A stretch of 64,000 nucleotides of DNA, taken from assembly GCA_963765145.1 (NCBI GenBank), contig CAVXVG010000026.1, positions 227,286-291,285 on the forward strand, written 5' to 3'. Positions 28,991 to 30,307 of the stretch are shown here, in pieces. The position numbers were made by a program, and so were the translations under genes. The stretch comes from Parachlamydiales bacterium. Lineage in GTDB: Bacteria; Chlamydiota; Chlamydiia; Chlamydiales; JAJFMK01. Position 1 is the first letter of the stretch, and each line of letters begins with the position of its first letter. The notes below the pieces were generated by a model that ran no database searches, was not told the origin of the DNA, and saw only the letters and a program-made list of their open reading frames with translations.

Positions 28991-29022
28991 CATTTTTTCG
29001 CGAAGCGTTTGGAGTGCTAAAC

Positions 29023-30013
29023 GGCCTTGTTGCATAATTGTTAATCAGCTTTTCGTTTTTCCTGCAGCCTTACAGGCTGCCATCTTTATTTTCTGCCCTT
29101 AACCTGGGGCGTTGCCCGCAGGCTGTTGCAACTATCCGGCTTTCAGCCGGAAAATCTCTATACACATTTTCATTGGCCTGAAAGGCCAAAACTGCAACAG
29201 CTCAGGGCAACGCCCTGAGGTTATAAGATAAAATAATATTGGCAGCCTTACAGGCTTGCCATCTTTATTTTCTGCCTTTAACCTGGGGCGTTGCCCGCAG
29301 GCTGTTGCAACTATCCGGCTTTCAGCCGGAAAATCTCTATACACATTTTCATTGGCCTGAAAGGCCAAAACTGCAACAGCTCAGGGCAACGCCCTGAGGT
29401 TACAAGATAAAATAATATTGGCAGCCTTACAGGCTTGCCATCTTTATTTTCTGCCCTTAACCTGGGGCGTTGCCCGCAGGCTGTTGCAACTATCCGGCTT
29501 TCAGCCGGAAAATCTCTATACACATTTTCATTGGCCTGAAAGGTCAAAACTGCAACAGCTCAGGGCAACGCCCTGAGGTTACAAGATAAAATAATATTGG
29601 CAGCCTTACAGGCTGCCATCTTTATTTTCTGCCCTTAACCTGGGGCGTTGCCCGCAGGCTGTTGCAACTATCCGGCTTTCAGCCGGAAAATCTCTATACA
29701 CATTTTCATTGGCCTGAAAGGCCAAAACTGCAACAGCTCAGGGCAACGCCCTGAGGTTACAAGATAAAATAATATTGGCAGCCTTACAGGCTGCCATCTT
29801 TATTTTCTGCCCTTAACCTGGGGCGTTGCCCGCAGGCTGTTGCAACTATCCGGCTTTCAGCCGGAAAATCTCTATACACATTTTCATTGGCCTGAAAGGC
29901 CAAAACTGCAACAGCTCAGGGCAACGCCCTGAGGTTACAGGATAAAATAATATTGGCAGCCTGTAAGGCTGCCGGAAACTCGAAAGATCTCGAAGCCATT
30001 ATGCAACAAGGCC
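29023..30013. mobile_element. Element E: non-coding, 16-bp terminal inverted repeat GGCCTTGTTGCATAAT (IS903-like)
   Basis: Perfect inverted ends at 29023-29038 and 29998-30013 resembling the IS903 end GGCTTTGTTGAATAAATC; no transposase inside. Confidence 0.7.
29064..29973. repeat. Tandem array of five 178-179-bp hairpin cassettes plus a terminal inverted hairpin
   Basis: Units start at 29064, 29242, 29421, 29600 and 29778 and differ by only 1-2 nt; final gcagcctgtaaggctgc at 29956. Confidence 0.97.
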
Positions 30014-30112
30014 GTGCTTTCACTTTCACTGATAAGTCAAAGGCTAAACGAGCTCGGGAGCACTCCTCTAGTAACTCAGCATTAATCCAAGAAATTATAC
30101 TCTTCTTTGTAC

Positions 30113-30221
30113 CTCTGTGTTCTCTGTGCCTCTGTGTTGAAAATGGTGAACTTTCACCTATAAATCTGCTTTGGCAAAAAGCTAGCTAAATTTTCAACAC
30201 AGAGGCACAGAGAACACAGAG
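30113..30221. repeat. Family C pair, arms in the opposite orientation to copies 1 and 2
   Basis: ctctgtgttctctgtgcctctgtgttgaaaat and its perfect 32-bp inverse at 30190-30221. Confidence 0.88.
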
Positions 30222-30307
30222 AGAAAAAGTACTTCGCATGTTACTTCTTGATCCGAGAGACGGCAGTCTATTCCTTGCTCCAAACGCTTCGCGAACTATA
30301 AAGCTCT

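Follow-up and report, generated by a model that had tools for sequence, protein, structure and literature searches.

The locus lies in the source genome (G000, assembly completeness 84.8%), within a window of 64,000 nucleotides that comprises the whole stretch of DNA analyzed (G000:C26:227286-291285). Between two convergent genes, four mobile layers are stacked: a REPIN-like host palindrome D, an element E inserted into it, a hairpin cargo inside E, and a further element F (Table 1). The element is absent from the orthologous convergent-gene gap of G001, a genome of the same genus in one contig, and for the host the locus is probably neutral. Only short frames (78 aa) occur in the repeat units and at 29953-30189, and they were rejected as genes because none has a Pfam match. 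The RlmL-like gene on the left carries a one-base shift relative to G001 at window positions 28380-28420 that splits its frame, which reflects either an assembly error or a pseudogene.

Table 1. Features of the locus between the two convergent genes, in window positions.
Feature	Position	Strand	Remark
Left neighbour, RlmL-like methyltransferase gene, two overlapping frames here	27823..28990	+	One open frame, 417 aa, in G001
Left arm of host palindrome D (REPIN-like); last 9 bases are the target GTGCTAAAC (29014-29022)	28997..29022	+	
Left terminal inverted repeat of MITE E (IS903-group end), GGCCTTGTTGCATAAT	29023..29038	+	14-15/16 identical to the ends of the intact IS G000:C2:1-1115
Left linker, E end to cassette	29039..29063	+	Exceeds the linkers of monomers C9:22830 and C8:7002 by 1 base
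Unit 1, 178 bp: arm A-B-C, spacer, arm C-B; hairpin A joins the next unit	29064..29241	.	
Unit 2, 179 bp; +T in hairpin A, one C>T	29242..29420	.	Junction crossed by run X3 contig
Unit 3, 179 bp; +T as in unit 2, one C>T	29421..29599	.	
Unit 4, 178 bp; majority form	29600..29777	.	
Unit 5, 178 bp; one A>G	29778..29955	.	
Closing hairpin A, loop inverted, the monomer's original right end	about 29955..29973	.	Loop orientation as in all 17 monomers listed
Right linker	29974..29997	+	Resembles the linker of monomer C26:106096
Right terminal inverted repeat of MITE E	29998..30013	-	Exact inverse of the left E end
Initial 5 bases of the target duplicate, followed by the core and right arm of D, which lack 16 bp between two GCT	30014..30066	+	Compared with empty D copies
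Element F, 211 bp, without ORF or terminal inverted repeats, between two CTCC in the D right arm	30067..30277	+	
C hairpin within element F	arms 30105-30144 / 30190-30229		
Right end of D	30278..30295	-	18 bp, 100% inverted match to the left D end 28997-29014
Right neighbour, convergent, 362-aa protein with OTU-like domain	30308..31396	-	

Positions 29064-29973 form the only long tandem array of the window (period 178, 5.1 copies, 98% match). A preliminary description of this DNA had reported five near-identical units of 178-179 bp between 16-bp inverted ends, and these were confirmed at 29023-30013, along with the hairpins that it had named (ggcagcc-ttaca-ggctgcc, ccggc-tttca-gccgg and ggcc-tgaaa-ggcc) and the final inverted ggcagcc hairpin that closes the array. 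The units differ from each other by four transitions and by an additional T common to units 2 and 3. As single-stranded DNA, two units with the closing hairpin fold at -122.6 kcal/mol, compared to -54 +/- 4 in shuffles (z -16). To the left of E stands GTGCTAAAC, and to its right GTGCT is followed directly by TTCAC, which corresponds to a normal D minus 16 bases between two GCT. Five of the nine bases of the target duplication are left on the right side, and the last four are gone with the deletion; the earlier reading of these flanks as a 9-bp duplication followed by a deletion at GCT agrees with this comparison.

Element E is a MITE, as it shares its ends with an autonomous IS, shows target duplications, occurs in many copies and at filled and empty sites, and has no transposase of its own. 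We identified 112 E ends in G000 at up to one mismatch, and three full IS copies of 1115 bp share these ends. An IS903-group transposase with matching ends had been anticipated; the copy at G000:C2:1-1115, bounded by GGCGTTGTTGCACAAT / GGCCTTGTTGCACAAT, encodes an intact 316-aa transposase, and the other two copies each carry a one-base deletion. The C2 protein scores 296 bits against NF033579 (cut-off 140), matches PF13737 and PF01609, and is 41% identical to proteins annotated as IS903B over 98% of its length, and the IS copy on C29 has an exact 9-bp target duplication. IS903 is a low-specificity inserter with short terminal inverted repeats starting with GGC and a 9-bp target duplication. 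On homology, ends that match at 15 of 16 bases, and 9-bp duplications, the C2 IS is a member of the IS903 group of the IS5 family, and its DDE transposase likely moves E in trans. Relatives of this transposase (E<=1e-60) were found in 39 of the 300 genomes of the order that were scored, and a DNA search of the plasmid collection with the monomer gave no match.

The E shell and the full IS have only about 16 bp of sequence in common. Palindromic cassettes of at least five kinds make up the interiors of E. Two of these kinds match Y1 gene flanks, each from a different gene; one is the studied cargo, and the other goes with the Y1 gene at C5:119344.

The cargo itself is an inverted doublet of arms of about 85 bp with three hairpins each. 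Its arm is 80% identical over 82 nt to the arms of a Y1 tnpA gene at G000:C21:218943-219404, which encodes 154 aa and is flanked by 114-bp inverted arms that are 92% alike. The protein contains the motifs HVH and YIQNQQEHH and scores as IS200-like (NF033573), and Y---Q--HH is described as the signature of TnpA(Y1) subclass 1.2 (PMC6006769). We assign this putative partner enzyme to subclass 1.2 (IS200-like) by its motifs, size and low copy number. A search for a Y1 RAYT had been proposed: a Y1 gene flanked by the unit arms does exist, and the enzyme is of the IS200-like subclass 1.2 rather than a classical RAYT. G000 holds two subclass 1.2 paralogues. Of 30 related loci examined, 29 have the motif and most have long inverted arms; 50 of the 301 genomes of the order contain relatives.

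The ends and the cassette both recur outside the studied locus. Among 47 arm-matching loci in G000, 37 are full doublets, seen in both orientations, with both E ends at 26 of them, one E end at 5 and none at 6. Like REPINs and BIMEs, the cassette consists of two inverted copies of a repeat found at the flanks of a Y1 transposase gene; it departs from them in that the partner is not a class 2 TnpA(REP)/RAYT, the arm measures about 85 nt instead of 20-40 nt, and there is no GTAG/GGAG-type foot. The preliminary description of a hybrid between a DDE MITE shell and a REP-like cargo is borne out in the nesting of the cargo within E and needs revision in the partner of the cargo, which is not class 2.

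Across the order, the strict end-plus-hairpin pattern was found in only 2 of 301 genomes, indicating that the hybrid is patchy; this pattern misses G001, whose arms face the other way. On contigs, an end-plus-hairpin pattern gave four matches (L110-L113) from one public assembly, which was not counted as a further genome. In G012, from another family, this end-plus-arm junction occurs eight times, and its 9-bp duplications are at sites other than D. A tnpA gene within an E shell was seen at one of the 30 subclass 1.2 loci, in G001, where the shell lies in a D remnant and encloses arms and the whole tnpA (67%); a gene-less version is also present there. Direct capture of the gene by this shell was considered and is weakened by inner CCATAAGCGCTAAC ends, which are of another kind and suggest that tnpA arrived later.

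Several further repeats were noted around these genes. A CCATAAGCGCTAAC end is joined to cassette hairpin B at one base at G000:C19:20471 and C21:174341, at L073 in G001, and at L088 and L096, and the element with these ends is probably another shell that targets the cassette itself. Tandem arm units of 66 bp and 84 bp lie beside a subclass 1.2 tnpA without an E shell at L097 (G200) and L091 (G050). The arms of the second subclass 1.2 tnpA of G000 (C24:56684-57130) score 28.5 bits on the Rfam family Acido-Lenti-1 (RF01687), and at least nine other sites in G000 pass its gathering score (37 bits; 150 of 371 candidates scored). The passing sites are arranged as inverted pairs with a spacing of about 160 bp, an arrangement that points to a DNA repeat behind this 'RNA'. 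Neither window positions 28500-30800 nor the surroundings of the C21 tnpA match Acido-Lenti-1 at E<=1. At G000:C29:104647-104979, a long Y1 protein with a C-terminal extension is flanked by GGGGTCAGGCC repeats in a TIRYT-like arrangement.

Tandem forms with 0, 1, 2 and 5 units were seen. The genome search for monomers that had been proposed showed copies of 253-280 bp with matching E ends to be common in G000, and in all those listed the two ends are copies of hairpin A whose loops are opposite. Because hairpin A (GCAGCC-loop-GGCTGC) reads alike on both strands, it forms a direct repeat at the two monomer ends, and with such a repeat at both ends slippage or unequal exchange is the favoured process. 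Both the pentamer and an independent dimer at C5:56257 have an inner junction composed of the right-end flank, GCAGCC and the left-end loop, which places the exchange within a stem of six to seven bases. This independent dimer joins at the very hairpin on which the idea of an expanding palindromic monomer of about 280 bp, with terminal hairpins as near-direct repeats, had been based. A 99-bp duplication at C36:15686 is joined at hairpin B, and G012 has one shell with a single hairpin A and one with a tandem.

Given the nesting, we lean toward slippage or unequal exchange as the route of amplification. A first slip in GCAGCC would have produced a dimer, and unequal exchange between units would have added the remaining copies, with the 16-bp hairpin deletion and the insertion of F as separate events. 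With the nesting unchanged, the array could also have been made by the Y1 TnpA, through hairpin nicking and rolling-circle-like copying as proposed for BIMEs. For TnpA(REP), cleavage and rejoining of BIMEs in vitro and an amplification model are described (PMC3333891), and G000 has an apparently intact cognate tnpA. Both A-type junctions fall in one stem, GCAGCC and never GGCTGC, and arm arrays flank tnpA in G200 and G050. However, only two such junctions exist and the third duplication uses hairpin B, as if any palindrome will do; the account of subclass 1.2 in PMC6006769 records no activity, and whole-unit tandems are found at only 2 of the 37 full loci. We therefore regard copying by TnpA as possible and rather unlikely, and retain mis-pairing of the terminal hairpins.

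The palindrome D, which surrounds E, measures about 94 bp. G000 contains 344 exact D ends in 128 pairs, 86 of which are spaced 78-86 bp and represent empty copies; D is an insertion target, and not the enclosing outer shell for which it had been taken. Of 124 placed copies, 49 lie between convergent genes, compared to 240 of 1151 gaps (crude ORF caller). D is occupied by several elements, namely E, F and two kinds of IS110, one of them in five copies at a single position. Outside this family, G228 has 235 D ends, and a class 2 RAYT-like gene there is bordered by D-type ends on either side; in G000, no Y1 gene flanked by D was found among the Y1 loci examined.

Fixed-site targeting of D is the most unusual point and was absent from the preliminary description. 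At 106 of 141 E ends with flank, the outer 9-mer lies within 2 mismatches of GTGCTAAAC or of its arm partner in D, GTTTAGCAC, compared to 0.27% of random 9-mers; since both 9-mers were taken from D, this figure measures position in D and not an independent motif. The other 35 ends are away from the D site. Among 52 E end pairs, direct 9-bp repeats, as expected from the earlier description, are exact in 24 and near-exact in 27, an inverted partner is present in 6, and 19 have neither a direct nor an inverted 9-mer at <=1 mismatch. The six inverted cases may represent the form left by an adjacent deletion to the other arm of D.

The duplications of E track the local D variant (GTTTCGCAC, GTTGCACAC, GTTTAGTAC), and six 279-bp E copies that are 0-2 bases apart sit in six different D copies. 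Both D arms and both orientations are used, with unrelated cargos at the identical base position, and 4 of 4 available flanks of the three full IS copies are D. At the metagenome locus L228, E with the studied cargo fills a D that is empty at G000:C27:150997-151079, and the upstream flanks of the two are 99% identical.

We also compared the targets of related transposases, in a comparison made without many IS903-type loci, including five of six G108 copies, as their ends were not detected. The closest relative is that of G228 (72%), which pairs with the G000 enzyme at 100/100 in a tree of 24 proteins, six of 30 loci having been left out before building. The G228 IS, one more IS end and two 156-bp MITEs are all located at the equivalent D site (7 of 9 end-pattern matches); the other two matches, single, with one mismatch and outside D, were set aside as likely chance. 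The G162 relative (65%) has five copies at five unrelated sites, four of them with exact 9-bp duplications. G162, G012 and G002 contain zero D ends, and their non-D insertions thus provide no clean negative control for preference. Two IS-like remnants in G001 lie outside D.

From these positions, an IS903-group transposon lineage likely aims at the D repeat. One could suppose instead that E is not aimed at D, having entered it once or a few times, with D-plus-E composites then spread by the RAYT of D or with insertions elsewhere purged. D is REPIN-like and D-type ends flank the class 2 RAYT gene of G228, as composite spread would suggest, and chlamydial genomes are gene-dense, so that surviving insertions would gather between genes. 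However, composite spread is at odds with duplications that track each D variant, with the use of both arms and both orientations, with near-identical E copies in different D variants, with the full IS and unrelated cargos at an identical base, and with a shared D that carries an insertion in one lineage but not in another; moreover, a D-flanked Y1 gene was not found in G000 at its 84.8% completeness. Purging by intergenic selection leaves the single base position unexplained. We consider an untargeted origin improbable and proceed with insertion of E aimed at D.

Other occupants of D were noted in passing. A 1609-bp IS110 (about 366 aa) is present at G000:C18:60087-61695 and in four more copies, at most one base apart and at one D-arm position, and a bridge RNA directed against D may lie in its long non-coding ends. 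At G000:C25:31.1-32.6 kb, D contains another IS110 type, whose GTGGATAT inverted ends are short; this IS110 has one E element and one IS903-type copy as neighbours. An IS that has GGCACTTGCAAAAAT-type ends and encodes a DDE transposase, and MITEs sharing those ends, were found at G000:C27:207199-208842, C29:131629-132384 and C2:80630-81158; they are nested in the second cargo of E and in D, giving nests of four and five layers. At an orthologous D (L225 and G000:C27:165789), the relative holds F and E with the studied cargo and G000 holds E with another cargo, pointing to independent fillings of one landing pad.

The tandem array is real, as confirmed by the following observations. A unit-unit junction is crossed by a 151-bp contig of run X3 (study P2) with 1 difference and by a 217-bp contig of run X1 (study P1) with 2 differences, and both contigs hold the variant alleles of the array in other combinations. 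Nine sequencing runs match at a small share, with no RNA run among those listed. Among the contigs of eight of these runs, none spans the whole array; those of X5 gave no match, and those of X7-X9 contained only element ends and monomer pieces. The count of five units is read from this one assembly alone, the contigs of the other studies covering a junction only. That the assembly expanded one or two units into five is very improbable. It would fit with an array that no searched record spans and with single-base frameshifts in the rlmL and IS copies of this assembly, but not with a junction that recurs in two other studies with matching variant alleles, nor with units that are told apart by transitions and whose right arm has no identical copy elsewhere in G000. 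In addition, the five 1609-bp IS110 copies are resolved inside contigs, which indicates that the assembly crossed repeats longer than the array.

It is equally hard to credit that the unit is a structured non-coding RNA gene or a CRISPR-like array with a host function: the folding is strong, a sister arm family scores against Rfam Acido-Lenti-1, and the junctions hold 6 terminator-like sites (2.1 +/- 1.5 in shuffles), but no Rfam family reaches its gathering score at the locus, where only chance hairpin-shaped matches occur, the units are whole repeats without spacers, the orthologous G001 gap lacks the element, and the copies are recent with transposon ends at their borders.

The preliminary description had placed the D core and a family C pair at the right of the array. 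The C hairpin is indeed there, and it belongs to the separate insert F. In G000, F has 20 right ends, and for 13 of them a left end lies no more than 2.5 kb away; all but one of these 13 are at the studied D position. The copies measure 41-211 bp, have a single orientation throughout and contain no ORF; the copy at the studied locus is 98% identical to one at C18:188188. With no terminal repeats, a short repeated core (CTCC) and a fixed orientation, F looks IS110-like and may be an IS110-derived MITE. The two IS110 types of G000 differ from F in their ends and in their D positions, and a search of G000 for an autonomous partner yielded no F-ended element with an ORF.

Taken together, we are fairly confident that the locus arose from a MITE with IS903-type ends at the fixed D site, which carried a doublet of Y1 arms that was then amplified to five units by mis-pairing of its terminal hairpins. 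The transposase itself may read the symmetric GGA-[9 bp]-TCC in the D arm, which would make D a safe landing pad. The cargo would have entered the E shell earlier, probably by REP-like insertion or capture, and would now be copied passively with the shell. The locus would then be a stack of selfish non-coding elements for which a host function is unnecessary. Lying between convergent genes, the junction hairpins look like two-way terminators.

A wider reading has, in our judgment, a little better than an even chance of being correct. A small IS903-group DDE clade would have evolved sequence-specific integration into one REPIN family, and its MITE derivatives would be the main vehicle of subclass 1.2 hairpin repeats. 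This would amount to a three-tier dependency, in which a RAYT makes the landing pads, an IS903-type enzyme fills them, and Y1 repeats ride along and amplify. If true, it would provide a compact DDE integrase that is site-specific and, for the uncharacterised subclass 1.2, the first DNA substrate to be defined. An enzyme of 316 aa that acts at one base of a symmetric site of 15 bp, and whose cousins at 65% identity are less specific, would allow the origin of DDE target choice to be studied by experiment, and it is a possible small targeted integrase. The cassette is a candidate substrate for TnpA subclass 1.2, and the series of 0, 1, 2 and 5 units bears on the origin of tandem REPIN arrays, which PMC3337134 calls unexplained. 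Fixed-site targeting by an IS903-group clade and the defined subclass 1.2 arms are points for mobile-DNA specialists to test.

Every ingredient of this system has a precedent, and the five-fold array is its least novel part. Known IS that insert into REPs include IS1397, ISKpn1 and ISPsy8 (IS3), IS621, ISPpu9, ISPpu10 and ISPa11 (IS110), ISRm22 (IS4) and IS1106 (IS5) (Tobes and Pareja 2006, PMC1525189); in the table of that paper, the strict (type 1) cases are IS3, IS110 and IS4, and the sole IS5-family entry is type 2 (4/7, 7/14). The present case is similar in that an IS and its derivatives land in a REP-like palindrome and several IS types share one target, whereas E belongs to the IS903 group, makes 9-bp duplications and uses one base position, and a cargo-bearing MITE does not appear in that account. 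A small module riding a REP-targeting IS110 is described in PMC12288879. Like the IS5-family bacterial MITEs of Delihas (2011, PMC3184786), E has short IS-matching inverted ends, a target duplication, no ORF and many recent copies, but its interiors are palindromic cassettes and not IS remnants.

The cassette resembles the REPINs and BIME-2 described in PMC3333891 and PMC3337134 in being an inverted doublet of the flanks of a single-copy Y1 gene, in both orientations, with tandem arrays of up to five, the number of copies also given for tandem REPINs (PMC3337134), and with single-hairpin excision products. It differs in its three-hairpin arms of about 85 bp, the absence of a GTAG foot, its subclass 1.2 enzyme and its spread mostly inside a DDE shell. 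According to Quentin et al. (2018, PMC6006769), subclass 1.2 occurs mostly in cyanobacteria and Bacteroidetes and in general lacks typical terminal structures. The C21 tnpA shares its signature and low copy number, and departs from that account in its clear arm family and in its matches within the order. In TIRYT/TIR systems, tyrosine transposase genes lie between long inverted repeats that are in part self-complementary, and these repeats make up families (Di Nocera et al. 2013, PMC3733652). The same paper describes REP dimers inside larger palindromes in Anabaena and Halothiobacillus, and the outer palindromes in its section 7 are not linked to any IS, unlike E. The account in the Rhabdochlamydia genome paper (PMC9723776) discusses IS expansion, and the word 'MITE' is absent from it. 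In the literature outside subscription journals, ISfinder and supplements, our searches turned up no description of an IS903-group element that uses a fixed REP site, nor of Y1 arms inside IS903-type shells.

Finally, the right neighbour of the stack, with its OTU-like cysteine protease domain, lies near a type III secretion cluster at 21571-26413, whose genes were named by eye from their translations, and this 362-aa protein could be a secreted deubiquitinase.
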